56,348 bases of DNA, taken from the NCBI GenBank assembly GCA_024275795.1, contig JAJRYJ010000064.1, positions 1 to 56,348 of the forward strand, given 5' to 3'. Below are positions 38,512 to 56,348 of the stretch, in pieces. The DNA is from Actinomycetes bacterium. Lineage in GTDB: Bacteria > Actinomycetota > Thermoleophilia > BMS3ABIN01. Positions within the stretch are counted from its first letter, which is position 1; the number at the start of each line of letters is the position of its first letter. Under the pieces are notes generated by a model. That model worked only from the letters and a program-made list of their open reading frames with translations. It ran no database searches and was not told the DNA's origin. Position numbers and translations under genes: made by a program.

Positions 38512-39779
38512 TGGTCCGGAGAAACCGCTCAACCCGCTGCATACTGGTCCTGCTGCTGACCCTGTCGCTGCTGCTGACCTCCGGCTGCTCCACCAGCCCG
38601 CCGGCCAACATGGACTGGGCCACCCCCACGGTTTCGGCAACAACCGGCATCGAGGCGGAGATCCAGGATACTTTCGACGCTTACGCGGCGGCGCTGGTGG
38701 CCAAGGACGAGGCCGGCTTCCTGGCGACCATCAACCAGGAGAACACCCGGTTCTACGCTTCCCAGCAGGAACTGTTCCGCCGCCTCGAGGATGTACCCTT
38801 CGACCAGTACCGCATCGCCCTGGAATCCGTCAGCGAGTCCGCTGAGGGCGCCGCCGTCGCCAAGGTGTTGACGACGTCGACGCTCAGTGGCAGCTTCCCC
38901 GGGCTGCCGCAACCGACACGGTCCGCCTATGCGCTCGTCAGGCGCGAAGACGGCTGGAAGCTCTCCGGCGACGCCTCCGAGCAGGCCCTCGGCCGCAAGC
39001 GCGACGCCCGCCTGGAGGACTTCGGCAAGGTCCTGGTGCATGAGAGCGGGCACGCCATCGTCCTGTACCTGGCGCCTGATGCAGCGACCGCCGCCCGGGT
39101 CGGCGGCCAGATCGATGACGCCTATCCGCAACTGGTGACCGCCCTGCCGGGCGTGGAGCTGCCGCGCGTGCCGGTGCTGGTCTTCTCCAACCAGGAACAG
39201 CTGGACCAGGCCTATCCGGGGCAATGGCAGGAATGGGTCGGCGGCGCCTCGCGCCAGCTGGGCAACAGCGAGCGCGAGGGCGGCGAGATCATCGTCCAGG
39301 CACAGGTCTACCGGGAGACCGGCTCTTACGATCCCGATTTCCAGAGCCAGACCATCGCCCACGAGCTCACGCACATCGCCCTGTTCCCCAGGTCAGGCGT
39401 CAGCACGCCCCCGCTGCTGGTGGAGGGTCTCGCCGATTACGTGGCGGGGGTCGAGCCCAGCCCGCTGCTCGCGGAGAAGCTGCACAGCGGCGCCGCCCTC
39501 AGTCCCAGTCTCAGCGACCTCTACCAGCCGTCGGGCTTCGATGTGCTGCTCAGCAACGAGGCGGCCCAACTGGCATACGACGAGGCCGGAACCGCCGTCG
39601 CCTACATCGAGCGGGACTTCGGTGGCGGCAAGGTCCTGGCCCTGCTTGAGGAATTCAAGCGCCGGGAGGACGACGGCACGGACCAGGACCAGCTGGTCGA
39701 CGAGGTGTTCCGCCAGGTGCTGGGGACAGGCTGGGCCGACTTCGAGAACGGCTGGCGACAATATGTACTGGGGCTCTGA
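38511..39779 (+). CDS. Lipoprotein with gluzincin (peptidase MA-like) domain
   Basis: Lipobox LTSGC; HELTH plus downstream EGLA third ligand; N-terminal NTF2-like segment. Confidence 0.72.
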   Translation: MVRRNRSTRCILVLLLTLSLLLTSGCSTSPPANMDWATPTVSATTGIEAEIQDTFDAYAAALVAKDEAGFLATINQENTRFYASQQELFRRLEDVPFDQYRIALESVSESAEGAAVAKVLTTSTLSGSFPGLPQPTRSAYALVRREDGWKLSGDASEQALGRKRDARLEDFGKVLVHESGHAIVLYLAPDAATAARVGGQIDDAYPQLVTALPGVELPRVPVLVFSNQEQLDQAYPGQWQEWVGGASRQLGNSEREGGEIIVQAQVYRETGSYDPDFQSQTIAHELTHIALFPRSGVSTPPLLVEGLADYVAGVEPSPLLAEKLHSGAALSPSLSDLYQPSGFDVLLSNEAAQLAYDEAGTAVAYIERDFGGGKVLALLEEFKRREDDGTDQDQLVDEVFRQVLGTGWADFENGWRQYVLGL

Positions 39780-40709
39780 GTGATGGCCGCCATTCATGGG
39801 ATTCGTTCAAACCGCGGGCTGCGCATCGGCGCAGTACTGGTATTCGCAGTCCTGCTGCTGGCGCTGCTCGCCTGGCTGGCGCTGCCGCGCGTCCAGTCCG
39901 CCCGCGCCGGCTCCATGCTGGAGGAGGCCAACGGCCATATCGCCGACGCCAACGCCTCCCTGGAGCAGCTTGATTTCGACCTGCTCTCCATCGAGGGCTT
40001 CACCTCGCTTGACGGCATCACGAAGGCCGGGCAGTCGCTGTCCGGCGCCGGTGAGCTGATCCAGGCGAGCGCCGCTGATATCAGCGAGGCCTCCGCCGTG
40101 GTGGAATCCGCCTCCGGCCTGCGTCTGCTGCCAGGGTGGTACAGGGAATACCTGGGCATCAAGCTGGAGATAGCGGGGTTGCGCGCTCAACAGCTCGAGA
40201 TCATGATGGACGCGTCCACGCGCCTTGAGGGGCTCTACGGGGCGGCGCCGCTGATATTCCAGTCCATGAGCGAGATGGACCGGATGCTGGGGCAGCTGGA
40301 GGCGGCCATCGCCATCACCCAGGATGACCCGCAGACAGCATCGGTCGAACTGTCGGACATTGCCGCATCCATGCGTTCCATACAGCAACAGCTCGACGAC
40401 CTGCACCAGCAGAGCGGCTTCGACCTGCTGGAAAACATGTCACGCAACGTGGCCGACAACGCCGCCCTGGCAGAAGCGGCGGGCGCCCTGGCCGACGCCG
40501 TCGCTTCCGGCGACCAGGGCCGTGTGCAGCAGCAGGCAGGGGTGCTCGAGCAACAGCTGCTGGACACCACCGTCGGCGTCGATTACCTGGACCTGTGGCT
40601 TAAGACGCAGCTTCGCCCCCTGAAGAAGGATTACGACGAGCTCCAGGAAAAGCAGGTGGAGCTGGATGCGCGGGCGGCCGCTCTCTACGAGGAGCATGCG
40701 GGCAGCTGA
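39780..40709 (+). CDS. Membrane-anchored all-helical hypothetical protein
   Basis: N-terminal TM, long amphipathic helices, host-like codon usage, directly follows the upstream stop. Confidence 0.65.
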   Translation: MMAAIHGIRSNRGLRIGAVLVFAVLLLALLAWLALPRVQSARAGSMLEEANGHIADANASLEQLDFDLLSIEGFTSLDGITKAGQSLSGAGELIQASAADISEASAVVESASGLRLLPGWYREYLGIKLEIAGLRAQQLEIMMDASTRLEGLYGAAPLIFQSMSEMDRMLGQLEAAIAITQDDPQTASVELSDIAASMRSIQQQLDDLHQQSGFDLLENMSRNVADNAALAEAAGALADAVASGDQGRVQQQAGVLEQQLLDTTVGVDYLDLWLKTQLRPLKKDYDELQEKQVELDARAAALYEEHAGS

Positions 40710-41665
40710 GACTCCAGCAGCCGTCGCGCCTCGCTGAAGCCGGCTGCGCGCCTGAGGCTGTCCCTCAGCTCTGCGTCCGGCCGGAAAGGCCGCAGGTACC
40801 AGCCATAGAACTTGCGCATGAAGCGCCCCGCCCTCTCCCCTCCCATCTCGGCCGCCAGGTCTTCGTGGAACCGTGACATCTCGGCGATTACCTCAACGGC
40901 GGGGCGTACGTGCGACTCCCTGCCCTGCAGCAGGTCACGGAACAGCCAGGGGTTGCCCAGAGCGGCCTGGCCCACCATAACCGCCGCACAGCCTGCCTCA
41001 AGCAGCCTGTCTACATCGGACGGCGACGAGACGTCGCCGCTGGCGAACACCGGCAGCTCAAGCTCCGCGGCCAGATGGGCGGTGAGCCCGTGGTCCGCCG
41101 CACCCTTGCGTCCCTGCTCCCCCAGGCGGGGATGGATACAGACCGCGGCCGCCCCCGCCGCCTCCAGCCTTCGGGCCAGCGACGGCGCCGTTACCGTACC
41201 GCGGGCGCCGGACCTGATCTTGGCGGTGACGGGAACGCTGACAGCCGCCACCATGGACTCGACGATGGAGGCCGCCAGGCGCTCGTCCTCCATCAGCGCC
41301 ACGCCGGCGCCGGTCTTGACCACTTTGCGCACGGGACAGCCCATGTTGATGTCGATGATGTCCGCCCCCGCCGCCTCGGCCAGCCGCGCCGCCTCGGCCA
41401 TGATATCCGGACGGCTGCCGAACAGCTGTACAGTCACGGGCCTCTCGGGAGGCTCTATCTCGAGCATCCGCAGCGTGCGCCGGTTACGATAGTGAATACC
41501 GTGGGAGCTGATCATCTCCGTCGCCGTCAGCCCCACCCCGTAGCGCCGCGCCTGCAACCTGAAGGCGCGTACGCTGATGCCCGCCAGGGGCGCCTGCAGC
41601 AGGCGGTTCTCCAGCTTGACGCCACCCAGAATCGTGGCGGTGCCGATATGTGAGTTCCCGGTCAT
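40685..41665 (-). CDS. dusB: tRNA-dihydrouridine synthase
   Basis: APLAGIS, TEMISS, QLFGS, DINMGCP (catalytic Cys), GAGVALM, VTAKIR; ATG 41665 preferred. Confidence 0.9.
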   Translation of the reverse strand: MTGNSHIGTATILGGVKLENRLLQAPLAGISVRAFRLQARRYGVGLTATEMISSHGIHYRNRRTLRMLEIEPPERPVTVQLFGSRPDIMAEAARLAEAAGADIIDINMGCPVRKVVKTGAGVALMEDERLAASIVESMVAAVSVPVTAKIRSGARGTVTAPSLARRLEAAGAAAVCIHPRLGEQGRKGAADHGLTAHLAAELELPVFASGDVSSPSDVDRLLEAGCAAVMVGQAALGNPWLFRDLLQGRESHVRPAVEVIAEMSRFHEDLAAEMGGERAGRFMRKFYGWYLRPFRPDAELRDSLRRAAGFSEARRLLESQLPACSS

Positions 41666-41684
41666 CGTGATACAATACTCCAAC
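41666..41684. promoter_or_regulatory. Overlapping divergent -10 boxes for two leaderless genes
   Basis: Plus: TGaTACAAT (41668-41676) 8 nt before ATG 41685. Minus: TATTGT (41677-41672) 6 nt before ATG 41665. Confidence 0.6.
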
Positions 41685-42473
41685 ATGGCTGATACGGTTC
41701 TTCAAACCAATAATCTCACCAAAGAGTTTACCAGGCTCAGGGGCCTTTCCTCCCCCCGTAACTTCTTCGACAAGATAACCTTCACTGCCGTCAGGGATGT
41801 GAACCTCTCCGTGAAGAGAGGGGAGATATTCGGCCTGCTGGGCCCCAACGGGGCCGGCAAGACGACCCTGACCAAGGTGCTGTGCACGCTGATACTGCCC
41901 AGCAGCGGCAGCGCCAGCGTCTGCGGCTTCGACCTGGCGCGCCAGCAGAGCAGGGTGAAGGCGTCCATCGCCCTCATCTCCAGCGAAGAGCGCAGTTTCT
42001 ACTGGCGCCTGTCGGGGCTGCGCAACCTGGAGTTCTTTGCCACCCTTTACGGCCTTTCCGGCAGGCAGGCCGCCGAACGCATCCCGGAGGTGCTTGAAGT
42101 CGTCGGCATGACCGAAGCCGCCGGCCGGCGTTTCCAGGAATACTCAACGGGGATGAAGCAGCGCATGGGCCTGGCGCGGGGGCTGCTGGCCGACCCGGAG
42201 ATCTTCTTCATGGACGAGCCGACCAAGGGACTGGACCCGCTGGCCGTCAAGGAACTGCACAGCCTCATCCGCAACCAGCTCACGGCCCAGGGCAAGACCG
42301 TGATCATGGCGACGCACCATCTGGCGGAGGCGGAACAGGTATGCGACCGTGTGGGCATCATGTCGAGGGGCAGCATGCGTGCGGTGGGCAGTGTACGCGA
42401 ACTGGCGGGCGACGACTCGCTGGCTGACTTCTTCCATTTCCTGGTCAAGGACGACCTCTCGATGGAGCACTGA
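41685..42473 (+). CDS. ABC-2 type exporter ATP-binding protein
   Basis: Start ATG 41685; GPNGAGKTT, YSTGMKQR, MDEPT, TH switch. Confidence 0.92.
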   Translation: MADTVLQTNNLTKEFTRLRGLSSPRNFFDKITFTAVRDVNLSVKRGEIFGLLGPNGAGKTTLTKVLCTLILPSSGSASVCGFDLARQQSRVKASIALISSEERSFYWRLSGLRNLEFFATLYGLSGRQAAERIPEVLEVVGMTEAAGRRFQEYSTGMKQRMGLARGLLADPEIFFMDEPTKGLDPLAVKELHSLIRNQLTAQGKTVIMATHHLAEAEQVCDRVGIMSRGSMRAVGSVRELAGDDSLADFFHFLVKDDLSMEH

Positions 42474-43288
42474 TGCTGAGAAAGCCGATGGCATTACTGA
42501 AGAAGGACTTCCTGCTGGAGATCAGCTACCGCTTCTCATTCTTCCTGCAGTTCGGCGGCATCTTCTTCTCGGTGGTGATGTTCTATTTCGTCTCCGTCCT
42601 CATCGGCGAGTCACCGACGGTGCAGAACAGCCTCAGCCGCTACGGCGGCGACTACTTCTCGTTCGTGCTCATCGGCATCGCCTTCTCCAATTTCCTCTCC
42701 GTGGGCCTGGGCAGCTTCTCCACGAACATCCGGGGCGAGCAGATGATGGGAACGATGGAGGCGATGCTGGTGACCCCAACGAGGCTGCCCACCATCATCA
42801 TCTCCTCTTCCCAGTGGAGTTTCGCTTTCACCTCCCTGAGGGTGGCCGTCTACCTGATCCTGGGCGCTATCTTCTTCGGCGTCGATTTCAGCAAAGCCGA
42901 CGTGCTGCCGGCGCTGGCGGCGCTGTTGCTGACGGTGATCGCCTTCAGCAGCCTCGGCATCATCTCCGCCAGCTTCATCATGATCTTCAAGCGCGGCGAC
43001 CCCATCGCCTGGGTGATCAGCACGTCATCAACCCTGGTGGGGGGCGTCTATTATCCGATCTCCATCCTGCCGGACTGGCTGCAGAGCTTCTCGTACCTGT
43101 TCCCGATCACCTATGCCCTGGACGCCATCCGCCTGGCCCTGTTGCAGGGGGAAGGCTATTCCAGCGCCGTGGGCAGGGACTTGACGGCACTGATAATCTT
43201 CTCACTGGTAACCCTCCCCATCAGCCTGCTGGTTTCCCGCTACGCCGTGGCCAGGGCCAAGAAGGACGGCAGTCTCGCCTACTATTAA
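42473..43288 (+). CDS. ABC-2 type permease
   Basis: Six TM segments, EQMMGTMEAMLVTP, GVYYPISILPDWLQ..SYLFPITY; TGATG coupling. Confidence 0.92.
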   Translation: MLRKPMALLKKDFLLEISYRFSFFLQFGGIFFSVVMFYFVSVLIGESPTVQNSLSRYGGDYFSFVLIGIAFSNFLSVGLGSFSTNIRGEQMMGTMEAMLVTPTRLPTIIISSSQWSFAFTSLRVAVYLILGAIFFGVDFSKADVLPALAALLLTVIAFSSLGIISASFIMIFKRGDPIAWVISTSSTLVGGVYYPISILPDWLQSFSYLFPITYALDAIRLALLQGEGYSSAVGRDLTALIIFSLVTLPISLLVSRYAVARAKKDGSLAYY

Positions 43289-43291
43289 GAT

Positions 43292-43376
43292 AGCGTAAAC
43301 TAAGCGTAACTCCAGGTTAAGTTTCTGTTGAATCTCCCGTGAACCCATTTATCAGGCGGACTTTGAGCATTACAAT
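43292..43376 (+). promoter_or_regulatory. Sigma-70-type promoter of the rpoN operon with upstream 11-bp periodic boxes
   Basis: TTTATC-N17-TACAAT (43348-43376); upstream AGCGTAAACTA/AGCGTAACTCC/AGGTTAAGTTT/CTGTTGAATCT. Confidence 0.5.
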
Positions 43377-43460
43377 CATATTGGAGGCTTTACCTGTCCG
43401 GCTCGGGATCCGGCGCGTGCATCCGGACTGCGGCAAATCGTACATCAACTGGAAGCTGTC

Positions 43461-44843
43461 ATGAAACTGAACCAGTCCACATCGTTGCGGCAACAGGTCT
43501 CCCTTTCCCCGAAGATGCTGCAGGGCCTGAGGGTGCTGAGGCTCAGCAGCCTGGAACTGCGCGACCTTATCCATGAACAGTTGCTGGAAAACCCGGCGCT
43601 GGAGCTGCCGGAGCCGTCGGGGGAGGAGCAACAGGATGTGGCTGCGGGCACGGAGGCACCGGCTGCGGCTGAGCGCGCCATCTGGGACGACTTCAGCCAT
43701 GCCAGACCGGAAGGTCCGCGTGGTGGCGCCGCCGGGAGCGAACGTCAGGACCCCATCGACCTGGCCGCCAGCCCCGAGACACTGGCGGACTACCTGGCGC
43801 TGCAGCTGGACCTGCAGGAACTGACGCCGCAACAGGTGCGCATCGGCGAGACCATCATCGGCAGCCTGGACGAGGACGGTTACCTGCGCGAGACCACGGC
43901 CAAGGTGGCCGAACTCACCGGATCCGAGGGAGCCGAGGTGGCAGCTGTGCTCGCCATCGTGCAGGGCTTCGACCCGCCGGGGGTGGCCGCCCGCGACCTG
44001 GCCGAGTGCCTGCTGAACCAGATGGACGAAGAAGCCGCCCGGGGGCTGCCGGGGCGGATCGTCCGCGAATGCCTGCCCCTGCTCGCCCGCGGCTCACATT
44101 GCCGCATAGCCGAACAGCTGTCGGCGACCAGCACCGAGGTCACCGAGGCCGTCTCGCTGATCAGGCGGCTCGACCCGGCGCCGGGAGCGGCCTTCGAACC
44201 ACGGCCGCCGGCGGCCGCCGTCATCCCGGATGTATTCATCAGGAAAGCCCACGGCGAACTGGCCGTACTGGCGAACAGGCAGGTGACCCCCTCCCTGTCC
44301 CTCAGCAAGGCCTGCGAACGCCTGGCGGAAAGGCCGGGCATCGATGCACGCGAGCGCAAGTATATCCGCGAGAAAATCGAGGGCGCCGCCGAGCTCATCA
44401 GGGAGATCGAACAGCGGCGGCTGACCCTTACCGCCGTGGCGCGGGCCATCGCCGACACCCAGCCCGAGTTCTTCGATTCGGGGCCGAGCCGGCTGCGCCC
44501 CGCCAGCCTCGATGACGTCGCCTCGTTGCTCGATGTGCACGCCTCCACCGTCAGCCGCGCCATCCAGGGGAAATACCTGAGCACCGCTTTCGGCATCTTC
44601 GAGTTCAAGTATTTCTTTCCCTCCGGCTGCGACACGGCGGACGGGCGCCGGCTGGCGGCGCCCGCCATCAAGCAGCAGCTCGGCGAGATGATCGGGGGCG
44701 AGGACAGGCGGAAACCCCTCTCGGATGAGAGGCTGTCACGGATGCTGAGCGAATCGGGCATCAACATCTCGCGACGCACCGTCGCCAAGTACCGCGAGGA
44801 GATGGGGCTGCCCGCCTCCTACCAGCGTAAGGAGCAGCGGTGA
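43461..44843 (+). CDS. rpoN: RNA polymerase sigma-54 factor
   Basis: Region I (Q/L-rich, LSSLEL...ENPALE), LDEDGYL, DPPGVAARDLAECL, HASTVSRA, RpoN box SRRTVAKYRE. Confidence 0.96.
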   Translation: MKLNQSTSLRQQVSLSPKMLQGLRVLRLSSLELRDLIHEQLLENPALELPEPSGEEQQDVAAGTEAPAAAERAIWDDFSHARPEGPRGGAAGSERQDPIDLAASPETLADYLALQLDLQELTPQQVRIGETIIGSLDEDGYLRETTAKVAELTGSEGAEVAAVLAIVQGFDPPGVAARDLAECLLNQMDEEAARGLPGRIVRECLPLLARGSHCRIAEQLSATSTEVTEAVSLIRRLDPAPGAAFEPRPPAAAVIPDVFIRKAHGELAVLANRQVTPSLSLSKACERLAERPGIDARERKYIREKIEGAAELIREIEQRRLTLTAVARAIADTQPEFFDSGPSRLRPASLDDVASLLDVHASTVSRAIQGKYLSTAFGIFEFKYFFPSGCDTADGRRLAAPAIKQQLGEMIGGEDRRKPLSDERLSRMLSESGINISRRTVAKYREEMGLPASYQRKEQR

Positions 44844-46364
44844 AGGGCCGGGGCGGGGGCACGCGGAAATGGCTGGGCGGCCGGGCGGAACAGGGCATCT
44901 CCGCCGGCCAGGTGCGCGATATCCTCATCGTCGTCATCAGCACCGCTTTCATCACCTACCTGCATTACAGGCCGCCGCACTACAGTTTCGTGCCGTCCGA
45001 GATCATGATCATCTATCGCAGGCTTTACTACCTGCCGATCTTCTATGCCGCCTTCCGCTTCGGCCTCAGGGGCGGACTGCTGACATCGCTTACCATCACG
45101 GCCCTGTTCACTCCTCATGCAGTCCAGTCCATGGGCGGCCTGTTCAAGGGAGCCGCCGTCGACAACTTCATCGACATCATCCTCTTCAACGTAGTGGCGC
45201 TGATCACCGGATCCCTGGTGGAAGCCAAGCGGCGCCAGACGGACCGCTACCACGAGGTGCTTGCCCTGAACCGCGAGATCGAGGAACGGGAGAGCGCCAT
45301 CCGGGGCATGAAAGCCTACACGGACAGCATCCTGCGCAGCATCAGCAGCGGCGTCATCTCCGTAGACCGCAGGGGGAACGTGGTTACCGTGAACCCGGAG
45401 GCGATACGCCTGATAGGCCGCTCCGAGGAGGACCTGGTGGCGTTTCCCCTCGAGCGGATATTCGAGGAACAACCTGCCCTGGTATCGTCGGCGCAACGGG
45501 TGCTGGCCAGCGACCAGCGGCGAGCCACCATGGAGATAGAGCTGGCATCAGAGGACAAGACCATGTCCGTCGCCGTCAGGGTGACACCCCACGTCAGCGG
45601 CGACAAGACGGTGGGCGTCGTCATCACCCTGGAGGACCTGACTGAGGTCAAGAACCTGACGGAACAGCTGATGCGTGCAGACAAGCTCACGGGGCTGGGG
45701 GAACTGGTGGCCGGCGTCGCCCACGAGGTGCGCAACCCCCTGGGTGTCATCCGGGCCAGCGTGCAGATGATCCAGCAGGAGACAGGCGCCAACGCCGACT
45801 CGGCGGAGCTGACACAGGTGATGCTGCAGGAGATAGACCGCCTTGACGCGCTGGTAAACGCCCTGCTGGAGTTCGGCCGGCCCTCCGAATCAAGGTTCAG
45901 GCAGCTGGATCCGGGCCAGACCCTGGAGGAAGTGGTGTTGCTGACACGCCAGTACGCGCGCCAGCAGGGTATAGACGTCCACCTGGCCACAAACAACAGA
46001 CTGCCGGTGATCCGGGCCGACGAGGACAGGCTGAAGCAGATCTTCGTCAACCTGATCACCAACGCCATCCAGGCGATGCCGGACGGAGGCGACCTGAGGA
46101 TAGAGACGTCCGTGGATGGCAGTTTTCTCAAGATCACCTTCAGCGACAGCGGCGTCGGCATCCCCGACGACGCCCTCAGCCGCATTTTCGACCCCTTCTA
46201 TACGACCCGGGTAGGCGGCAGCGGCCTCGGCCTGTCCATCATCCACCGCATTATCGATGCCCACAACGGTTATGTTAATGTTGAGAGTACCCGCGGCGTA
46301 GGCAGCAGGTTCACCGTGGGGTTCCCCCTGTTATCCAGCGAGGACACCAGCGAGGTGGGACTGA

Positions 46365-46372
<8 letters not shown>
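44840..46372 (+). CDS. PAS-domain sensor histidine kinase (NtrB/AtoS family)
   Basis: Four N-terminal TM segments (YYLPIFYAAFRFGLRGG), PAS, AGVAHEVRNPL, NLITNAIQAM, FDPFYTT, GSGLGL. Confidence 0.93.
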
Positions 46373-47717
<1,345 letters not shown>

Positions 47718-47808
47718 AACCGTGTCGAAACCGCTGTATCCTAAGTAAGAATCTCATGTATATCAACAAAGGCTCAACTTTCTCCGCACGTGAGCCGGGA
47801 ACAGGCTC

Positions 47809-49011
47809 ATGAAACGGATAGGACTCCTAAATCTGGCTGCGCAGAACCTCAAGCGCAAGCCCTTCCGCAGCATAGTCACCGTAGCCATCGTGGCCATCGC
47901 CGCCGGCACCCTGTTCTCGGCGACGCTCCTCATCAGCAGCGTCCAGCAGAGCCTCAAGGTGGGCATGAAGCGCCTGGGCGCCGACATCCTGGTCATCCCC
48001 GAAGGGGCTGAGGAGTCGAGCGAATCGGCCCTGATAACCGGGGTGCCAACAAGTTTCTACATGGATGAATCCGTACTGGACGAGGTCCGCTCCGTTCCCG
48101 GCGTCGACCAGGCCTCGCCCCAGCTTTTCATCGAATCCCTGATCTCCGCCGCCTGTTGCACGGGGCATGTGCAACTGGTGGGCTATGATCCGGATACGGA
48201 CTTCGCCGTCAGCCCCTGGCTGGAGGAGAACACCCAGGGTCCGCTGGGGGACAGCGATGTCGTCGTCGGCTCGCTGATTCTTGCAAATAAAGGCGAGACG
48301 GTTAAGTTCTATGGCCAGGACTTCAATGTCGTGGGGGTGATGGACGCCACCGGCATGGGCGCCGACGAGAGCGTCTTCATGCAGCTGGACACGGCATACC
48401 GCATGGCCGAGGAGTCGCAGCAGGATGCCCTCAGCGCCCTCGATGTGCAACGGGGCCAGATATCATCGGTGCTGGTAAGGGTGAATCCGGAGGTGACCAT
48501 CGACCAGGTGGCCCAGCGCATCAGCACAAACGTACCGGGGACGGTCGCGGTGACAGCCAACGAGATCAGCCGCTCCGTCACCGACAGGCTCTCGGGCTTC
48601 CTGCGTGGTTTCATAGTGCTGGATGTGATCGTCTGGGTGATGTCGCTGCTGACCATCGCCGCCATATTCTCCATGATCGTCAATGAGCGGCAACGCGAGA
48701 TCGGCCTGCTGCGGGCCATGGGCAGCAACCGCAACTACATCTTCAAGCTGATGCTGACGGAAGCCGTGCTGCTTACGGCGGCCGGCGGCCTGGCGGGCAT
48801 CCTTATCGGCGGCGCCACCCTGTTCATCTTCAAGGCCGTGATCACCGCCAGCCTGGGCGTACCCTACCTGTGGCCGCCGCTCTGGTACTTTGCCGTACTG
48901 GTGCTGGGCACCCTGCTGCTTTCCGTGCTCACCGGCGCCCTGGCGTCCCTGTATCCCGCTTTCAGCTCCAGCAGGCTGGAGCCCTACGCCGCAATCAGAC
49001 AGGGGGAATGA
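47809..49011 (+). CDS. MacB/FtsX-family ABC permease
   Basis: N-terminal TM, extracellular domain with a CC motif, NERQREIGLLRAMG, three C-terminal TM segments. Confidence 0.92.
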   Translation: MKRIGLLNLAAQNLKRKPFRSIVTVAIVAIAAGTLFSATLLISSVQQSLKVGMKRLGADILVIPEGAEESSESALITGVPTSFYMDESVLDEVRSVPGVDQASPQLFIESLISAACCTGHVQLVGYDPDTDFAVSPWLEENTQGPLGDSDVVVGSLILANKGETVKFYGQDFNVVGVMDATGMGADESVFMQLDTAYRMAEESQQDALSALDVQRGQISSVLVRVNPEVTIDQVAQRISTNVPGTVAVTANEISRSVTDRLSGFLRGFIVLDVIVWVMSLLTIAAIFSMIVNERQREIGLLRAMGSNRNYIFKLMLTEAVLLTAAGGLAGILIGGATLFIFKAVITASLGVPYLWPPLWYFAVLVLGTLLLSVLTGALASLYPAFSSSRLEPYAAIRQGE

Positions 49012-49015
49012 GCTC

Positions 49016-49702
49016 GTGGCCGACAGCATAATCTCACTGAAGGAGATCAGCAAGACCTACAAGGCCGGCCCCAACACTGTGCGCGCCGTCAATAAGGTCT
49101 CGCTGGAGATAGATCGGGGGCAGATGGTCTCCATCGTCGGCCATTCCGGCAGCGGCAAGACGACCCTGCTGAGCCTGATCGGCGGCCTCACAAAACCCAC
49201 CAGCGGCACGGTCAAACTGAACGATACCGATATCTGGACGCTTCCCGACAAGGAGCAGTCCCTGCTGCGCAACCGCCTGATCGGCTTCACATTCCAGTTC
49301 GCCAGCCTCATTCCCACGCTCAACGTCTTCGACAACATCAGGCTGCCGTCGACATTCGACGGAACAGCCTTGGTTTCGCCGGAGCGTGTCCAGGAGCTGA
49401 TGGACAAGGTCGGCCTCGGGGACCGCGGTCATTCCTATCCCTCAGAGCTTTCCGGCGGCGAACAGCGCCGGGTGGCCCTGGCCCGCACCATGATCAACGA
49501 GCCGCAGCTGATCCTCGCCGATGAGCCCACCGGCGACCTGGACGAGGACACGGAGGCCGAGATCCTGGCCATCTTCAGGCAGATCAACGAGGGCGGCGTC
49601 ACCATCCTGATCGTCACCCACTCGAAGGCGGTTGCTTCCCAGGCGTCCCAGACCCTGAAGATGCACAAGGGACACCTGACCGAGAACCTGGAAAATTCCT
49701 GA
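49016..49702 (+). CDS. MacB/LolD-family ABC ATP-binding protein
   Basis: GTG 49016 start; GHSGSGKTT, LSGGEQRRVALAR, ADEPTGDLD, VTH. Confidence 0.93.
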   Translation: MADSIISLKEISKTYKAGPNTVRAVNKVSLEIDRGQMVSIVGHSGSGKTTLLSLIGGLTKPTSGTVKLNDTDIWTLPDKEQSLLRNRLIGFTFQFASLIPTLNVFDNIRLPSTFDGTALVSPERVQELMDKVGLGDRGHSYPSELSGGEQRRVALARTMINEPQLILADEPTGDLDEDTEAEILAIFRQINEGGVTILIVTHSKAVASQASQTLKMHKGHLTENLENS

Positions 49703-49716
49703 AGGAGGATCAAGCC

Positions 49717-50034
49717 ATGCGCCGTCCAGTCATCCTGATTATCATCCTGCTGCTCCTCGCCACGCCCCTGCTGGCGCTCGGCGGCTGTGGAGAAGAAAAG
49801 GGCGCCATCAGCAAGGATACCTATGGACAGATCGAGCCGGGCATGACCATGGATGATGTGGATGCCATAGCCGGGCAGCCGGAACGCTCCCACAGCCTCG
49901 GCACGGCCCAGGACCCGCAGATCTTCTGGTACTACAACAAGACCGAGGGCGAGGGCTTCGTCCGCGTGGTCTTCGAGGGCGGCAAGGTCACTACCGTCTC
50001 ACCCTACGACGAGAGCATCACTCCCGAGAGCTGA
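49717..50034 (+). CDS. Small lipoprotein, BamE/SmpA- or BLIP-like fold
   Basis: AGGAGG RBS; lipobox LGGC; YGQIEPGMTMDDVDAIAGQP and W.Y pattern. Confidence 0.75.
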   Translation: MRRPVILIIILLLLATPLLALGGCGEEKGAISKDTYGQIEPGMTMDDVDAIAGQPERSHSLGTAQDPQIFWYYNKTEGEGFVRVVFEGGKVTTVSPYDESITPES

Positions 50035-50084
50035 CCGGCGGCCGCGGGGGCGTCTGCACGGGTCGCCGACTCCTCCCATGCAGA

Positions 50085-50111
50085 TGTAGCAAAACATACA
50101 CCTGCTGTAGC
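50085..50111 (+). promoter_or_regulatory. Candidate enhancer (UAS) for a sigma-54 activator
   Basis: TGT-N10-ACA at 50085-50100 and a second TGTAGC half-site 21 bp later, ~160-180 bp upstream of the predicted start site. Confidence 0.5.
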
Positions 50112-50238
50112 TTAACCACCGGCGGGCCCGTTCCATAAAGCGTATCACCGTCGGCGCCCCTGGTCGGACATGCGTCGAAAGCGCCTGATTCCCCCGATTC
50201 GGCTGAAAAAACCTCGTTTCCCCCGCCATTTCCCATTG

Positions 50239-50255
50239 TTGGCACGCCTCTTGCT
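50239..50255 (+). promoter_or_regulatory. Sigma-54 -24/-12 promoter
   Basis: TTGGCACGCCTCTTGCT matches TGGCACG-N4-TTGC exactly; intergenic, downstream of rpoN and its activator. Confidence 0.85.
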
Positions 50256-50265
50256 ACATACAGAG

Positions 50266-50361
50266 GTACAAGCCATCAATCCCTTTCTATCACCCTCTTT
50301 CAATGGTCTGGGAAGATGTGGCTTTCAGTTATGGCCTGCCCGCGACGGCGGGCAGGCCTTT
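50266..50361 (+). ncRNA. Candidate sigma-54-dependent small RNA (~96 nt)
   Basis: Bounded by the sigma-54 promoter and a terminator hairpin; 5' stem (AAGCCA/TGGCTT, TCCC/GGGA) with a CU-rich loop; no RBS-led ORF. Confidence 0.55.
50333..50361 (+). terminator. Intrinsic terminator-like hairpin
   Basis: GGCCTGCCCGC-GACG-GCGGGCAGGCC followed by TTT (short U-tract). Confidence 0.65.
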
Positions 50362-50443
50362 AAAACCAGGAAACAGCTCTTGATCCAATCTGAAACGGAT
50401 AAGCTGAAACAGTATCGCCGGCCGTATGGGGAGTTGAGATCAC

Positions 50444-50662
50444 ATGGATAATCACCAGTTACAGACAGGCCTCCATCAAGTGAACAGCCAGAGCCTCCTG
50501 GCGACAAGGGTCTGGGAGATGCTGCAGCGGACCATCAGCGTCCCGGATATAGCGTCCAATATAGCCAGTGAGTTCGGCATGACGCGGGACCGGGCACTCA
50601 GCCAGACCCGTCGTTGCCTGGAATATTTCAGCGACGTTGATTTTGACTGCCGCAGACTGTAA
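50444..50662 (+). CDS. PqqD/RRE-like small protein, possibly truncated
   Basis: ATRVWEMLQRTISVPDIASNIASEFGMTRDRA...CLEYF resembles the three-helix part of PqqD; GGGGAG RBS; N-terminal beta strands not evident. Confidence 0.45.
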   Translation: MDNHQLQTGLHQVNSQSLLATRVWEMLQRTISVPDIASNIASEFGMTRDRALSQTRRCLEYFSDVDFDCRRL

Positions 50663-50665
50663 ACC

Positions 50666-51667
50666 TCAGGCCATACCGTCTACCCAGCCCTCGATGGTCG
50701 TTTTATCGGATCCCAGTTCGTCGGCTATCTCGGCCAGACTCATTCCCTGACTGTAAAGGTTGCGGGCCCGTGTCTGCCGGTCACGGTATGCCTTGCTGCG
50801 ACAGGCGTTGGAGCAGAAATAGCGGTTGGTTCTCGCCGTATAGTGGTCGATCTCGAACCATGATTCACACTGGCGGCAACGGCGGTAGTCCTTCTCCTGC
50901 GTCACCGACTGGGCGAACTGCAGCCAGATGGCGCCGATGAGGTTCACGGGCGTGAAATACAGGCTCCAGCGCTTCCGGACTGAATCATCCCATAGTATCC
51001 GCGGTGAGATTCTACTCTCCAGATGCCGGTTAGTGATCGCCTGTACCCACATCTTGGCCGGCACCACCAGGTCGCCTGCCCTGTAATAGTCGATAACCTC
51101 GGGGTGTGTACGGAACCAGCGCAGGTCATCCGGCTCGAAATCCGGGAAGGACGCCGCCGGGTCGGGAAGGTTGCGGACTGAGCCGCCCTTGATATCGGCG
51201 TCCACCCAGCTTATGATCGGTGACAATCGGGTTGTAAGCCCATGGGCATCCTCGGCCTGCACCATATCCCATAGCCTAAGAGCCTTGCTTATGGAGCGGA
51301 TCTCACGGTGCCAGACTTCAAGCGGCTCAAGGGTGCACAGAAGCGGGGGACTATTGGGGTCGGCATTCTCCCTGTCTAATCCCAGCATCCCGTAGGTGTC
51401 TGCAAAGGCAAGGATTCCCTCTTCCGATGTTTCAGCCTCCGCAAAGGACCTGAAAAGACATTTATGTTGTTTTAACGGGTTGTACTGCTCGATATCGCCG
51501 ATTCCCGCAGCCGGATCGACATTGACACTGATAAAGCGTTGCATTGTCCCCGGCGGCGCCGGTTCACATCCTGAAAGTGCCGCTGTTTCGTCATCCGCTG
51601 CCATGGCCACAACACAGTGGCCATCCCTGTTCCTGAACCAACTGAATTCGAATATCTCGCCCGGCAT
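50666..51667 (-). CDS. CGNR-type zinc finger protein with C-terminal HTH
   Basis: CRQCESWF...RYFCSNACRSKAYRDR followed by GMSLAEIADELGSDKTTIEGWV; GAGGAG RBS. Confidence 0.75.
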   Translation of the reverse strand: MPGEIFEFSWFRNRDGHCVVAMAADDETAALSGCEPAPPGTMQRFISVNVDPAAGIGDIEQYNPLKQHKCLFRSFAEAETSEEGILAFADTYGMLGLDRENADPNSPPLLCTLEPLEVWHREIRSISKALRLWDMVQAEDAHGLTTRLSPIISWVDADIKGGSVRNLPDPAASFPDFEPDDLRWFRTHPEVIDYYRAGDLVVPAKMWVQAITNRHLESRISPRILWDDSVRKRWSLYFTPVNLIGAIWLQFAQSVTQEKDYRRCRQCESWFEIDHYTARTNRYFCSNACRSKAYRDRQTRARNLYSQGMSLAEIADELGSDKTTIEGWVDGMA

Positions 51668-51706
51668 CTGGTTTTATCTCCTCGTAATCGTTATAATAGC
51701 TATCAA

Positions 51707-51748
51707 GCGTTACGGGAATTATATATAATTACGTATTGTATGGCAACT
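51707..51748 (-). promoter_or_regulatory. Sigma-70 promoter of the CGNR gene (copy 1 of a dispersed repeat)
   Basis: Minus strand TTGCCA-N17-TATAAT followed by TCCCGTAACGC. Confidence 0.75.
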
Positions 51749-52035
51749 TATACCATGGATATGATACAATTCTCGTCTTTTTAATAATGTTTCAACAACC
51801 GGTCTGAAAAGTGAGCCCCCAATAGTCCCGAGCTCTGGAATAAAAAGGCAATCCCGGCAATCTGCACCTCGGAAAGTATTTCATTGGCTGCTCTGGAATT
51901 CCTTATGCGACTGCATCTGGAGCTAACCCCGGGAGACCTGAAATATCACAATCATTATTGTAACGGATGACGTCATGATTATTAGAGTCCACCTTCGTGC
52001 AACCGGGATATGCGGACATGTTCCTCATTTTTCAC

Positions 52036-53769
52036 ATGAACAGGCATAACTCCGCCGCCGGGACGGCACGCAGCCGGGTCGACAACACGAAACCGGCGTT
52101 GGCAGCCGTAATTTTTTCCGCGCTCTGCATTACGCTTCCCTTCATAACCAAGGCCTTCCGCCTTGACGATACCTTCTTCGTGCGCCTCGCCCAGGAGAAG
52201 CTCGTGCACCCCCTGGCGCTTGGTCTTCCGGAACACAGCTTTGAGGGAAATCTCCTCACGCTGTATCTCGATACTCACCCACCACTGCTCAGCAGCTACC
52301 TTTCGCTCCTCATCCGCATCTTCGGCGGCGCTTCAGAAGTCGGGTTGCACCTGGGTTTCGTCATCTTCCCGGTAATTGCCGGCGTATCGATGTTTTTCCT
52401 CGGACGACGGTTCACAGGCAGCCCGCTTCTCTCGGCGCTGCTGCTTATAATGACACCCGGTTTCATGGTCATGTCGCAAAGCGTCATGACCGATACGCCG
52501 GTGCTGGCGTTCTGGCTAGCGGCGATCGCGGCCTATGTGTACGCTCTGGACCGCGATGATGGCCGGCTGCTCATAGTCTCGGGTATCTTCACCAGCCTGG
52601 CAATTTTTACTACATATCAGTCACTCAGTCTGTTGCCGCTGTTCTTTTTGTACGCGCTGCTCTGGCGGCGCATCACCATGAAGAACATGCTGCCGCTGAT
52701 CGCCGGCCTCGCGGTCATCACAATCATCATTTTCAATTACTACGCCGTGACCGGTGGGCCACCCAAACTTTCTTACGGCATCGGACTCACCTTCGCGCCC
52801 TGGTTCATGGCTGACAAGGTGCTGTCGTCGGTCTCGACCATCGGCGGCGCGACGATTTTCCCGCTGATTATCATCGTGGGAATGCTCAAGGGGAAGAAGG
52901 ACCGCCTCGTGTTCGGCATGATGTTCGCAGCGCTGCTTGTTTACTACCTGTTCAAGGTGACTTCGGACCAGTATACGGTGGCGGCAGCCATCCTGCTGAC
53001 GCTCTTTTATTCTGCAGGATTGCTCGCGCTCTACCGTTTTGCCAGAATGGGGCTGGAGGCTGCTTTTGCCAAGAAAAGGACAGCGAGCGACTTCGATAAT
53101 ATCTTCCTTGCACTCTGGATCGCGGGCGTCCTCTTCTATACGATTTTTCTGCTGCCTTACTCCTCGACCCGTTACCTGCTCGCACTCTTTCCGCCGGTTA
53201 TCCTCCTGTTTGTGAAGTACACTCGGGAAATTGTTTCGCGGCAGGATGATGATGCGAAGGGAAGTTCCTGCGATATAACAGACGAGAAGCCTTCAATGAG
53301 CAGGGGCGGCAGGTGGGAGGTTTTTGCGATCGCCGCAGTCGTCTGCACCGCCTTGACCGGCTTTGCTGCCTCGATTGCTGACTACCAACTAGCGGGAGTC
53401 TACCGCAGCTTCGCCAACGACTATGTGCAGAAGCTTGAGGCCGATGGTCACCAAGTCTGGTTCGCAGGGGAATTCGGACTTCGATACTACCTTGAGGAGA
53501 ACGGCGGACGCTATCTCACCAGAGACGACAATACACCTGCTTCGGGGGATTACGTCATCCTCAGCCACCAGCTTATCGCCTTTTTCATCTCCCCTGACCT
53601 GGGGAGGCGGCTGCAGCTCGAACAAATGGTGGATTACCCTGGCACATGGCCCGTAAGAATCGAGCATCCCGACAGTCAGGCGGGCTTTTACGACCAGTTC
53701 CACGGGGTTCTTCCCTGGTCGCTTTCCCAGGCTCCTATCGAATCAATCTGGATATATGTAGTTGAATAA
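52036..53769 (+). CDS. GT-C (PMT_2/ArnT-like) membrane glycosyltransferase
   Basis: First loop RLDD...THPPL, VMTDTP, RYLL.L.PP, more than ten TM segments, soluble C-terminus; start may be 51997 or 52018. Confidence 0.78.
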   Translation: MNRHNSAAGTARSRVDNTKPALAAVIFSALCITLPFITKAFRLDDTFFVRLAQEKLVHPLALGLPEHSFEGNLLTLYLDTHPPLLSSYLSLLIRIFGGASEVGLHLGFVIFPVIAGVSMFFLGRRFTGSPLLSALLLIMTPGFMVMSQSVMTDTPVLAFWLAAIAAYVYALDRDDGRLLIVSGIFTSLAIFTTYQSLSLLPLFFLYALLWRRITMKNMLPLIAGLAVITIIIFNYYAVTGGPPKLSYGIGLTFAPWFMADKVLSSVSTIGGATIFPLIIIVGMLKGKKDRLVFGMMFAALLVYYLFKVTSDQYTVAAAILLTLFYSAGLLALYRFARMGLEAAFAKKRTASDFDNIFLALWIAGVLFYTIFLLPYSSTRYLLALFPPVILLFVKYTREIVSRQDDDAKGSSCDITDEKPSMSRGGRWEVFAIAAVVCTALTGFAASIADYQLAGVYRSFANDYVQKLEADGHQVWFAGEFGLRYYLEENGGRYLTRDDNTPASGDYVILSHQLIAFFISPDLGRRLQLEQMVDYPGTWPVRIEHPDSQAGFYDQFHGVLPWSLSQAPIESIWIYVVE

Positions 53770-53794
53770 GGTTCAGAAACATCCTGCGACCCAA

Positions 53795-54382
53795 TCAATA
53801 GCCCGGGACGCCGTCGCCTGAATAGTTGGAATTCTCCTGAATCCTGGGGTTTATTTCATATTCGGTAAGAAAATAGGACAAGGACATCGGACCGACCATG
53901 GACCAGTTGATATCGTCTGCCGTCTCCCGGTCAACCATCAGTCTACAGGCGACCTCATCGCTCTTTACACCCTGATCAACGCCGTAGATGGTCACGACCA
54001 CCTTGGAGACCTCGGGGTATTGAAAAAGCGGCGGTAGCGTCTTGTATACAAAGGAGGACAATACTCCCGCTAAGGTACCATCTCCCCAGTCGGCTGGACG
54101 GTCAAACTCGATTTCGACGGTCTTGTCCATCTCCTCTCCAGAAATCTCGGCACGGCGCACCAGCGACATATCGTTCAAGCTGTATGAGAGTATATCCTGG
54201 ACAGTGCTCTCCGTCAGGGCCGCCTCCTGCCCATGCACCCCCATCTCACTGGTCCCGATGACGGTGGTAACCTGTTGCGAGTCGCAACCATTAATTACCA
54301 GCCCCGTTGCCGAAACAGTCCCCACTGCCAGAAACATCACGACGATCTTCAGAAGAATACGTGTTGGTTTTGTGCTGTTCAA
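53795..54382 (-). CDS. Hypothetical exported protein, possible lipoprotein
   Basis: TTG start with AGGAGG RBS; hydrophobic N-terminus ending INGC; acidic globular domain. Confidence 0.6.
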   Translation of the reverse strand: MNSTKPTRILLKIVVMFLAVGTVSATGLVINGCDSQQVTTVIGTSEMGVHGQEAALTESTVQDILSYSLNDMSLVRRAEISGEEMDKTVEIEFDRPADWGDGTLAGVLSSFVYKTLPPLFQYPEVSKVVVTIYGVDQGVKSDEVACRLMVDRETADDINWSMVGPMSLSYFLTEYEINPRIQENSNYSGDGVPGY

Positions 54383-54520
54383 GATCGTTCCAGCCTCCTT
54401 TTTCTCCTTGATTCGTTCAGGATACTCCGGTTGTGTGGCACGAATGGAGTTTCACACTCTAAGGGTAAACGGTCTGGAACGAGGCCGACTGCTATCTTGA
54501 ATATGCCTGTCACCCGGCAA

Positions 54521-54541
54521 CCAAGTGAATCATTCACTTGG
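54521..54541. repeat. Perfect 21-bp palindrome, operator-like
   Basis: CCAAGTGAAT-C-ATTCACTTGG. Confidence 0.7.
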
Positions 54542-54858
54542 GATGTGGCACATCTCACTGGATGTATGAAATGAACGAAACAACTCAACAAAGATGCTGC
54601 ACTGATCGTCAAGGAAGACCTTGATTCAGACCTCGAGGGGCGGTATACGCAAGCGGTTTGCATCCGCATCGCCCATGCCAGCTCCGGACGTCACATTATC
54701 GCATAAAGTAACCGTGGCCTCCTTTTCGATTGCTATATCTAACTGATCTTGACACGCCCTGTGGGGCTTAAGACCTGTAAATATGATGTTTTTTATCCAG
54801 AAATAGGGAATCTTTACCCCTCAGACGATGACATGAAGCGTCTCTGTGTCTGTTTGCA

Positions 54859-55007
54859 TGATCCAACTGAACTCGAAAAACTCACCTGGTGTTAAAAAGG
54901 CCTGCTAAAACCAGATAAATCTAACTGTTTATCTCTCAATATCGAGTTATGAAACTCTTAATAATGCGTTACGTGAATTATATAAGAATATGTATTGTAT
55001 ATCAACT
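54859..55007 (-). pseudogene. Decayed duplicate of the promoter and first codons of the CGNR gene
   Basis: 54966-55007 is 35/42 identical to 51707-51748; 54859-54892 is 26/34 identical to 51634-51667 and reads (T)PGEFFEFSW versus MPGEIFEFSW, with ATG changed to ACA. Confidence 0.75.
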
Positions 55008-55287
55008 ATCATCACATATACAATTGTAGTCGGTTAACTTGCATTAGCCGCATTAGGAATGGGGATAGGGGGAAATCGACATCCAGGTTGCCGGGCCTGG
55101 CATTGGAGAAGCCAGCTTCCTTCACCGGAGACCTGTTTCGGAATCGAGCTTTCCCGTTATAACTCCTGTCCCTCGTGCTGGCTGATGAAGAGGGGTACAA
55201 GGAGGTGGTGGGATAAGGGGAAAACACAGGCACTATCGATTCACGAATAATAAAAAAAAGAACATGTCAAGACTAGAAGGAGCAACA

Positions 55288-56214
55288 ATGAAGACAAACA
55301 AGGATAACAGGGATATGGAAGAAGCTGTCCCGAGCGGTATCTCGCGGCGCAAGTTCCTCAGCCGGGGAGCCATGGCTGTCGGCGCCGCCGGCGCTACGTT
55401 GGCAGCCACAGGAGGCCTCGGACTGCTTTCCGGCGGTCTCGCCTCGGCGCAGTCTTCACCGACATGTGCGACCGTACCGGGCACCGTAAAGCACCCAAGA
55501 GGAACATGGGGTTATCCGAGCGCAGGACTGGATCCTGGTGAATGCGCCGAGCGCGCATATCACTCATATCAGGTAGGTCACTGTGCCTACGGTGTGATGG
55601 ATGGAGTCCTCGGCATGCTTCAGGATACGCTGGGCTCTCCCTACACGAACCTTGACCTGACTTCCTTCATCTTCTTGTGGGGCGGGCTCAATGGTTGGGG
55701 CACGGTATGCGGAACGATCGCCGGTGCCGGCCTCACGGCCAATCTCATTGCCGGCGTAAACGCCACTACCGGGCTTGATGATGGCATGGCGATGAGCGAA
55801 GAGCTGACGGGATATTATGCATCGGCCGTAATTCCGGATTATGATCCGATTTCAAGCGAGTACGGAGGCACGGATACCGCTTATCTGCCTGGAGGAGCAA
55901 TCCCCCAGGATACCCCCGATACACCTATTTGCCACGTATCGGTAAGCAAGTGGATGACTGTCGCCGGCGTCGGTGATTTCTGGACTGAAGAAAGAAATGA
56001 ACGCTGCGCCAGGCTGGCCGCCCAAATGGCCAGAAAGACAGTCGAACTGCTAAACGCGTGGAATGATGGTACCTATGTATATGGCGGTACCGGTGCTGGC
56101 GCGTGGCCGGCTCCTCCTGGCTTCTTCCCCTCTCCAGGCTTCAATAATCCAGCGTTCGGCGGTTACGGACGCCCCGCGCAGGAGAACTGCACGGACTGCC
56201 ACACTACACCGTAA
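55288..56214 (+). CDS. Tat-exported split-Soret cytochrome c-like protein (C-GCAxxG-C-C family)
   Basis: SRRKFL Tat motif, HCAYG, GWGTVCG, ICHVSVSKW, ERCARL, C-terminal CTDCH heme motif; AAGGAG RBS before ATG 55288. Confidence 0.85.
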   Translation: MKTNKDNRDMEEAVPSGISRRKFLSRGAMAVGAAGATLAATGGLGLLSGGLASAQSSPTCATVPGTVKHPRGTWGYPSAGLDPGECAERAYHSYQVGHCAYGVMDGVLGMLQDTLGSPYTNLDLTSFIFLWGGLNGWGTVCGTIAGAGLTANLIAGVNATTGLDDGMAMSEELTGYYASAVIPDYDPISSEYGGTDTAYLPGGAIPQDTPDTPICHVSVSKWMTVAGVGDFWTEERNERCARLAAQMARKTVELLNAWNDGTYVYGGTGAGAWPAPPGFFPSPGFNNPAFGGYGRPAQENCTDCHTTP

Positions 56215-56260
56215 CAAGCAACCCAGAATAGCCTTCACTAACGATGAGGAGGATGAAGAA

Positions 56261-56348
56261 ATGAAGTCTAAAAGAAAACTGGGCCTTGTAGCGGTGATGG
56301 CTGGCATCATGGCCCTTGTGATAATCATGGGGGCGGGTGGCGTCGGCA
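56261..56348 (+). CDS. 5' end of an exported protein, cut by the window edge
   Basis: GAGGAGG RBS, MKSKRKLGLVAVMAGIMALVIIMGAGGVG signal-like N-terminus, open to the end. Confidence 0.65.
   Translation, partial: MKSKRKLGLVAVMAGIMALVIIMGAGGVG

Follow-up and report, generated by a model that had tools for sequence, protein, structure and literature searches.

What is made from a perfect sigma-54 promoter that is followed by a strongly folded RNA before any protein gene begins? The question is raised by a 56,348-nucleotide stretch of DNA (contig JAJRYJ010000064.1 of assembly GCA_024275795.1, hereafter the window) from an actinomycete bacterium of the lineage Actinomycetota; Thermoleophilia; BMS3ABIN01. 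A preliminary description had read positions 50085-50361 as a complete sigma-54 transcription unit with no protein gene, producing a small RNA (sRNA) with an anti-Shine-Dalgarno (anti-SD) loop and a terminator stem at the end of an undescribed cascade. The unit proved to be real and conserved, with its enhancer, sigma-54 promoter and structured RNA standing beside a likely two-component system, though the gene-free anti-SD sRNA held only in part. The RNA directly precedes a small conserved protein gene of the PqqD family, and for this reason we favour a regulatory leader over a gene-free sRNA. We would give roughly even chances to the view that the conserved RNA is a regulatory 5′ leader or attenuator of the PqqD gene, possibly also releasing a short RNA.

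The RNA, its promoter and its relatives

The predicted RNA has two domains (coordinates in Table 1): a 5′ domain, in which a long CU-rich loop is closed by two helices, the outer P1 and the CCC/GGG P2, and a GC-rich hairpin (P3). Both the 5′ stem with its CU-rich loop and the 11-bp stem had been noted in the preliminary description, and both lie where it had placed them. The folding energy of bases 50266-50366 is -43.1 kcal/mol (z = -5.1), none of 200 shuffled sequences being as stable, and the z values of type A folds, as we call RNAs of this form, run from -2.6 to -6.1. The two-domain fold is common to all 12 RNAs folded, which include a second form, type B, described below, and in all copies P1 starts a few nucleotides from the predicted start of transcription.

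A DNA BLAST search of the intergenic region against 40 relatives gave no match, and related loci were instead reached through homologues of the 72-residue PqqD-family protein encoded downstream and of the lipoprotein encoded upstream. Homologues of the former led to loci in other genera, each with a sigma-54 promoter approximately 145-180 nt before the start of the open reading frame (ORF), and four of these five share the leader. A covariance model of the five resulting type A RNAs (that of the window and four others) finds exactly one copy in each of those genomes and no further strong match in 24 genomes of the family or 151 of the class. A pattern scan of the genome collection gave 60 matches, only four of them real by model R1 and the others due to chance, and a scan of metagenomes for type A gave none. 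The search against Rfam (4227 families) with positions 49000-52000 at E values up to 10 returned nothing except two chance matches to long non-coding RNAs, and eight related loci had no match at E values up to 1. The RNA family is undescribed.

Within type A the loop motif ACCCUCUUUC is invariant in all five RNAs, as are the CCC/GGG helix and the segment GGUYUGGGA, so that the conserved loop pattern is ACCCUCUUUC...GGUCUGGG, closed by P1 and P2. The pairing of P3 is kept despite changes on one or both sides. No segment of the locus is better conserved than the RNA core, which over six pairwise comparisons shows 68-98% identity compared to 50-89% for the PqqD gene, 41-86% for the spacer between them and 49-72% for the region upstream of the promoter. 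When P1 arms were combined into cognate and non-cognate duplexes the two differed at p = 0.017, a value confounded by the relatedness of the sequences and by one 5′ arm (G005) that was cut at the wrong place.

In genus g7 (7 genomes) and in one genome of genus g9 the TGGCACG-N4-TTGC promoter again follows the lipoprotein gene, and behind it lies the type B RNA. Its P1 is variable, its P2 is again CCC/GGG and its loop has CGGUCUGGG at the end; a U-rich linker then leads to the hairpin GCUCCGG/CCGGAGC. Further hairpins come next, before a gene whose product is membrane-anchored and weakly matches an immunoglobulin (Ig)-like domain. In the other two g9 genomes the type B RNA is found further downstream, 1.8-4.3 kb from the lipoprotein gene. 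Genus g2 carries a third variant of the leader, and in genus g4 the promoter drives a downstream membrane-protein gene directly, without RNA between. The type B models give 19 strong matches in 12 of the 24 family genomes, seven of these 12 having two strong copies; together with type A this makes 24 strong matches in 17 of 24, with no RNA found in the six genomes of genus g3 or the single one of g4. No type B match came from 127 genomes of the class that belong to other families, nor from a phylum sample of 151 genomes, a sample that held no type B genome as a positive control. A pattern scan of metagenomes for type B gave more than 119 stretches, and among the 80 examined three match model R2, two of them close to copies in family genomes.

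The type B sequences also carry the covariation that had been proposed as a check of the RNA. For 20 sequences 12 of the 21 pairs change on both sides, compared to a mean of 6.6 after shuffling and with none of 500 shuffles reaching 12; the covariation score is 0.209 compared to 0.137, and controls with the structure slid along the alignment give at most six pairs. It is the outer helix that covaries, in 10 of 10 P1 pairs, and P2 and five of the seven P3 pairs never vary. The 20-sequence alignment was fitted to the model and so leans towards the structure tested; with eight type B sequences the covariation is weak (14 and 48 of 500 shuffles score as high). The frequent G-U pairs in type B argue for an RNA on this strand rather than a palindrome in the DNA. 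From type B sequences aligned with MAFFT, RNAalifold predicted another inner pairing, which we set aside as it shows no covariation. Judged from their position, promoter, architecture and shared CCCU...CGGUYUGGG motif, types A and B appear to be kin.

All ten type B or second-copy loci inspected have a GG-N10-GC sigma-54 promoter of their own just upstream. Among the second copies, six of the eight inspected lie approximately 180-300 nt before the start of an ORF, which opens with a Tat (twin-arginine translocation)-type signal in the two that were read further. A conserved GGAGGTG(G/A)T motif stands about 50-80 nt before the downstream ORF in the second-copy loci L257-L264. A further feature is seen in seven type B leaders (L099, L100, L109, L110, L108, L255 and L256), where a hairpin with an ACCCCAG apical loop lies 3′ of the RNA core and is followed by a long hairpin with a CACUGGGGGA loop and then by a ribosome-binding site of the type ACCCCAGGA. 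The complementarity of CUGGGG and CCCCAG suggests a switch before the membrane-protein gene, working by loop-loop contact or by sequestering the ribosome-binding site; type A has no such loops at this site.

Could all this be a matter of chance motifs, or of a small-protein gene rather than an RNA? Taken singly, the promoter and enhancer motifs are within chance expectation. The 1.9-Mb genome holds two copies of the strict promoter word, where approximately one is expected, and the window has one match with one mismatch allowed, where 1.27 are expected; TGT-N10-ACA occurs 121 times in the genome (a background of 0.063 per kb) and the two-part enhancer pattern three times compared to 2.3 expected. 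What takes promoter, enhancer and RNA beyond chance is that they are conserved at the same syntenic place across genera. The perfect promoter and the enhancer with its second half-site, both named in the preliminary description, are present in the window and recur in its relatives: the promoter lies 3′ of the lipoprotein gene in 15 of the 18 related loci examined, and in 13 of those 15 a (T/C)GT-N10-ACA site is found 155-249 bp 5′ of it (at -155 here), with a consensus near TGTGGCA-N2-TGCCACA. The promoter core (TGGCA, G and TTGC) is unchanged in an alignment of six genomes. As for the small gene, we rejected a 26-codon ORF (50303-50383): its ATG is kept in only one of five genomes, being ACG in the four other type A genomes, and it lacks a preceding Shine-Dalgarno (SD) sequence. 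No reading frame is open throughout the five type A sequences, from which we take the RNA to be non-coding. We therefore regard an origin in chance, or in this small ORF, as hardly credible.

The downstream gene and the fate of the transcript

The PqqD-family ORF is the probable protein product of the unit. Though the window's own protein scores 21.5 bits, just below the 23.4-bit cut-off of PF05402, all six of its homologues match that family (best E = 2.5e-8). The ORF is on the same strand in all six genomes of this locus type and starts 43-85 nt after the P3 hairpin, a gap of only 45-50 nt separating P3 from the start codon in genus g6. No enzyme for ribosomally synthesised and post-translationally modified peptides was recognised near it. 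A scan of 49700-50750 for sigma-70-type promoters found none between the RNA and the ORF, and the next ORF is on the RNA strand wherever a locus was read as far as the ORF start (six type A/C, nine type B main and six second-copy loci). The description of the unit as one with no protein gene is wrong.

The stem that had been called a terminator is a strong GC hairpin, but it fails a canonical terminator scan of 49700-50750, in which no terminator was called. Its tail in the window is UUUAAAAC, compared to tails starting CGAAAC, GGAAAC, UCUAAA and UCAGCC in relatives, and the UUU run after P3 is found only in this genome, neither the four other type A genomes nor type B having one. Hairpins with U-tracts are not generally enriched here: there are 13 compared to 9.8 in shuffled sequence for positions 1-20000 and 5 compared to 11.9 for positions 36400-56348. 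Genome-wide, hairpins after stop codons number 86 compared to 72 of 1992, which is little enrichment in a crude ORF set, and several of those in this genome carry UUU as P3 does. The organism may thus rely on 3′-end signals other than U-tract terminators.

The two-component system (44840-46372 and 46365-47717) most likely binds the enhancer at 50085-50111 and opens the sigma-54 promoter at 50240-50254; the transcript is predicted to begin near 50266, its first 95 or so nucleotides folding into the RNA element. We propose that the element is a leader acting in cis. P3 would then stop or pause some transcripts, or mark a processing site, leaving a stable RNA of approximately 95 nt, and read-through of P3 would yield the PqqD mRNA. 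The conserved loop could then be the site at which some factor or ribosome-binding region sets the ratio or the stability of the two. The same-strand position of the next ORF, the short gap in genus g6 and the lack of a sigma-70-type promoter in the region scanned all suggest such an arrangement, as do the direct drive of a membrane-protein gene in genus g4, the type B hairpins that continue up to the ribosome-binding site, and a P3 without a U-run in relatives.

Several observations weigh against a leader. Conservation stops exactly at the end of P3, as it would in a discrete sRNA, and the RNA is multi-copy like the sRNA paralogues Qrr and Pxr. The downstream gene varies with the RNA type, encoding a PqqD-like protein, an Ig-domain membrane protein or a protein with a Tat signal, and in at least one second-copy locus P3 is followed by a hairpin whose tail is moderately U-rich. 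The type A and type B models match each other's sequences at E values of 0.2-1 or not at all. No alternative pairing was found between the 5′ domain and P3, so that a classical riboswitch-like expression platform is not evident. Since U-tract terminators are not enriched in the genome, the missing U-run is weak evidence against termination, and the start, the end and the read-through of the transcript are predictions.

Much of this would suit a free-standing, trans-acting RNA of approximately 95 nt that ends at P3, with an exposed CU loop that pairs to purine-rich ribosome-binding regions of other mRNAs in a cascade working without Hfq, a reading that we consider possible but on balance doubtful. 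The RNA would have its own sigma-54 promoter and enhancer, conservation that ends where it ends, and a very stable P3 followed here by UUU; the downstream genes would be free to vary, as they do between RNA types, and a multi-copy family with a sigma-54 promoter for each copy is what PMC5568312 describes for the Pxr paralogues. Its loop is also invariant in type A, and the mean energy of its pairing to typical SD windows is -8.1 kcal/mol. This pairing is not specific, however. Though the CU loop pairs with the downstream SD region in the minimum-energy folds of four of the five full type A leaders, the cognate SD ranks no better than 972 other SD-bearing start windows of the genome, at the 43rd percentile with the whole loop and the 87th with the conserved core. 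The loop is thus generically complementary to SD sequences, with no target singled out in cis or in trans, and the ACCCUCUUUC motif is absent from type B; the anti-SD loop of the preliminary description keeps its complementarity and its invariance within type A, but neither specificity nor a place in the sister form. An sRNA of this kind would also have to be reconciled with the same-strand ORF always found downstream without a visible promoter of its own, with the want of a U-run in relatives and of any called terminator, and with a genome (94% complete) in which neither Hfq (PF17209) nor CsrA was found.

A different role would be that of a protein-binding or stabilising 5′ element, in which the loop and P3 are recognised by a protein, for instance through mimicry of the 3′ tail of 16S rRNA, or the 5′ stem blocks decay that depends on the 5′ end. 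The placement of P1 close to the predicted start in all copies would fit a stabiliser, and the invariance of P2 and of most P3 pairs in type B suggests that sequence is read and not shape alone. The type A loop AUCACCCUCUUUC.AA...GGGA (50284-50313) moreover resembles the 16S rRNA 3′ end and the start of its trailer, GGAUCACCUCCUUUCUAGGGAG, with the CCUCC core appearing as CCCUC; the 16S 3′ end was read from two relatives (L124, 1523-1545, and L123), that of this genome not being assembled. We treat this likeness as a lead only, as it is not shared by type B and could arise by chance in a CU-rich loop. Conserved loop bases are needless in a pure stabiliser, no candidate binding protein was identified, and we think such an element decidedly unlikely. 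A bolder proposal joins the likeness to the anti-SD pairing: a new riboregulator family, dependent on sigma-54, in an actinobacterial lineage that branches deeply, with one or two strong copies per genome that are each fired by an enhancer-binding activator, whose type A loop mimics the 16S 3′ tail and whose RNA, released at P3, acts as an Hfq-free trans anti-SD regulator or decoy at the end of a cascade from kinase to activator to sigma-54 to RNA. We offer this tentatively and would not expect it to hold in full. The leader or attenuator of the PqqD gene is the reading that we carry into the comparisons below.

Comparison with known sigma-54-dependent RNAs

In Proteobacteria and Myxobacteria there are known regulatory RNAs that are tied to sigma-54 and to a two-component system beside them (Qrr, GlmY, CrcZ and Pxr). 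The present unit belongs to none of these, given that Rfam returned no match, Hfq was not found and the terminator is doubtful. Closest in working logic is Pxr of Myxococcus and Cystobacter, which PMC5568312 places just downstream of the gene for a sigma-54-dependent response regulator, with a sigma-54 promoter, a length of approximately 100 nt and several stem-loops; there each paralogue has its own sigma-54 promoter, and processing yields a long and a short form of the RNA. Our RNA differs in having no sequence or structure match to Pxr by way of Rfam, in coming from a different phylum, and in a close same-strand ORF that is always present.

The Qrr RNAs of Vibrio are multi-copy, with one copy beside the activator gene, depend on Hfq and end in U-tract terminators. 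They too stand at the end of a chain from a two-component system through a sigma-54 activator, LuxO, to an RNA of approximately 100 nt (see also PMC3352281 and PMC4878744). Though the logic of kinase, activator and sigma-54 is shared, in our genome there is no Hfq found, no canonical terminator and no Rfam match to Qrr.

A similar picture emerges for GlmY and GlmZ of the enterobacteria, a system that is accompanied by a lipoprotein, QseG. The sRNA depends on sigma-54 and its activator, the kinase and regulator GlrK-GlrR (QseE-QseF) being linked to the envelope, according to PMC3162934 and PMC3045617, and GlmY acts as a protein decoy for RapZ and has its own terminator, according to PMC7073468. 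In the present case there is neither an Rfam match to these RNAs nor a recognised RapZ-like partner. CrcZ and CrcY, by comparison, are RNAs of approximately 400 nt that sequester Crc and Hfq. In Pseudomonas a single activator of the CbrA-CbrB system drives them, with sigma-54, together with protein operons through upstream binding subsites (PMC6296734). The likeness here lies in an enhancer of one type found 5′ of the RNA unit and of a protein operon on contig C103 (see below); size, motifs and phylum differ, and Rfam gives no match.

Structured 5′ leaders such as riboswitches and attenuators share with this RNA the conserved fold at the 5′ end, the strong hairpin and the same-strand ORF, and it recurs before different operons within one genome. 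It differs from them in that no ligand pocket or antiterminator pairing was recognised, and its link to a sigma-54 promoter is unusual for such leaders. That promoter is always attached and the output genes vary, a pattern that points to an RNA module being reused within one regulon.

PMC3162934 reports Actinobacteria (Actinomycetota) as being without a sigma-54 system. The genome studied here is filed under that phylum, and it has a complete one, with one rpoN and three or four activators. The RNA would be the first family of its kind in Actinomycetota. For an uncultured lineage, the locus also provides a clean consensus of the enhancer and a minimal regulon.

Regulon and gene neighbourhood

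The source assembly is of 1.9 Mb and 62% GC. Its rpoN is the only match to PF04552, making it the single sigma-54 gene found, and with three or four activators (PF00158 proteins) it makes up a sigma-54 system spread over positions 43461-47717 of the window and contigs C4, C14 and C40. As the preliminary description had said, the RNA follows both rpoN and an activator gene; they lie 2.5-6.8 kb 5′ of the promoter, with three genes (an FtsX-like permease, an ABC ATPase and a small lipoprotein) between activator and RNA. The RNA unit probably has the adjacent response regulator as its sigma-54 activator, which would act on the promoter at 50240-50254.

Table 1. Features of the RNA unit and of its surroundings in the window.
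Feature	Position	Strand	Observations
rpoN	43461..44843	+	Pfam Sigma54_AID, CBD and DBD domains; TIGR02395 387 bits
Membrane PAS histidine kinase, AtoS-like	44840..46372	+	HisKA, HATPase_c and PAS domains; position kept in relatives
NtrC/AtoC-type response regulator	46365..47717	+	Response_reg, Sigma54_activat and HTH_8 domains
FtsX/MacB-type permease	47809..49011	+	MacB_PCD and FtsX domains; 74-83% identity, syntenic in relatives
ABC ATPase	48890..49702	+	ABC_tran domain; LolD/FtsE-like NCBIfam matches; ORF as listed
Small BamE/OsmE-like lipoprotein	49717..50034	+	Weak BamE and OsmE matches
Enhancer (upstream activating sequence) TGT-N10-ACA	50085-50100	+	Second TGTAGC at 50106-50111, 21 bp after the first; whole site 50085..50111
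Sigma-54 promoter TGGCACG-N4-TTGC	50240..50254	+	Perfect match; predicted start ~50265-50267
Structured RNA, type A	50262..50370	+	Model R1 97.9 bits; fold z = -5.1 and -4.8
P1	50270-50276 with 50318-50324	+	Outer helix
P2	50280-50283 with 50310-50313	+	CCC/GGG helix
CU-rich loop	50284-50309	+	26 nt; contains invariant ACCCUCUUUC
P3 hairpin	50333-50358	+	11-bp GC stem, then UUU at 50359-50361
Spacer between P3 and ORF	50362..50443	+	Ends in SD GGGGAG; 41-49% identity between genera, the background level
PqqD-family ORF, 72 aa	50444..50662	+	PF05402 E = 2.9e-4; SD present; syntenic in 6 genomes
333-aa protein with C-terminal Cys4 motif and helix-turn-helix (HTH)	50666..51667	- (convergent)	Weak HTH matches only

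Both strict promoter matches in the genome are intergenic and downstream of activator genes. The second of them (C14:937) comes immediately after another activator gene, and the ORF that it drives has a short leader, so that the motif is apparently in use in this organism; the site 5′ of it differs in look from the two-part enhancer. Another sigma-54 promoter, TTGGCATG-N4-TTGCT, was found on the minus strand of contig C103 (approximately 43760-46030, locus L004), where the same two-part enhancer lies 133 bp upstream. It drives a gene for a DUF4418-like membrane protein through a short, unstructured leader, and approximately 2 kb further downstream this strand also carries a paralogue of the PqqD-like ORF. 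This unit probably shares a regulon with the RNA unit, and since the same two-part enhancer precedes both, two promoters or more are probably under the control of the adjacent activator. The third copy of the two-part enhancer was taken as chance, as it lies inside a long ORF with no sigma-54 promoter within 500 bp. The second-copy loci L257-L264 have in addition a conserved box, TGACC-N5-6-GGTCA-GGTTTTT, approximately 60-70 bp 5′ of their sigma-54 promoters; standing between enhancer and promoter, it could be the site of a bending protein or of a second regulator.

The order of ABC genes, rpoN, kinase, activator, FtsX permease, ABC ATPase, lipoprotein, promoter with RNA, PqqD gene and convergent 333-residue gene is kept in four relatives from three genera. 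The lipoprotein has homologues in 20 of the 24 family genomes, and the 3′ end of its gene marks the syntenic position of the RNA unit. For the ABC ATPase, the real start is probably downstream of the listed ORF start. The 333-residue protein has 36 homologues, mostly unnamed and from records titled Gaiellales or Thermoleophilia, and it is syntenic in four relatives; we regard its gene as a conserved neighbour rather than an established part of the RNA unit. Positions 50785-50840 of the minus strand encode its C-terminal CxxC...CxxxC-AYRDR motif, and this DNA has one difference in approximately 55 nt between two genera whose whole proteins are only about 50% identical, so that it seems to be under constraint beyond the protein level.

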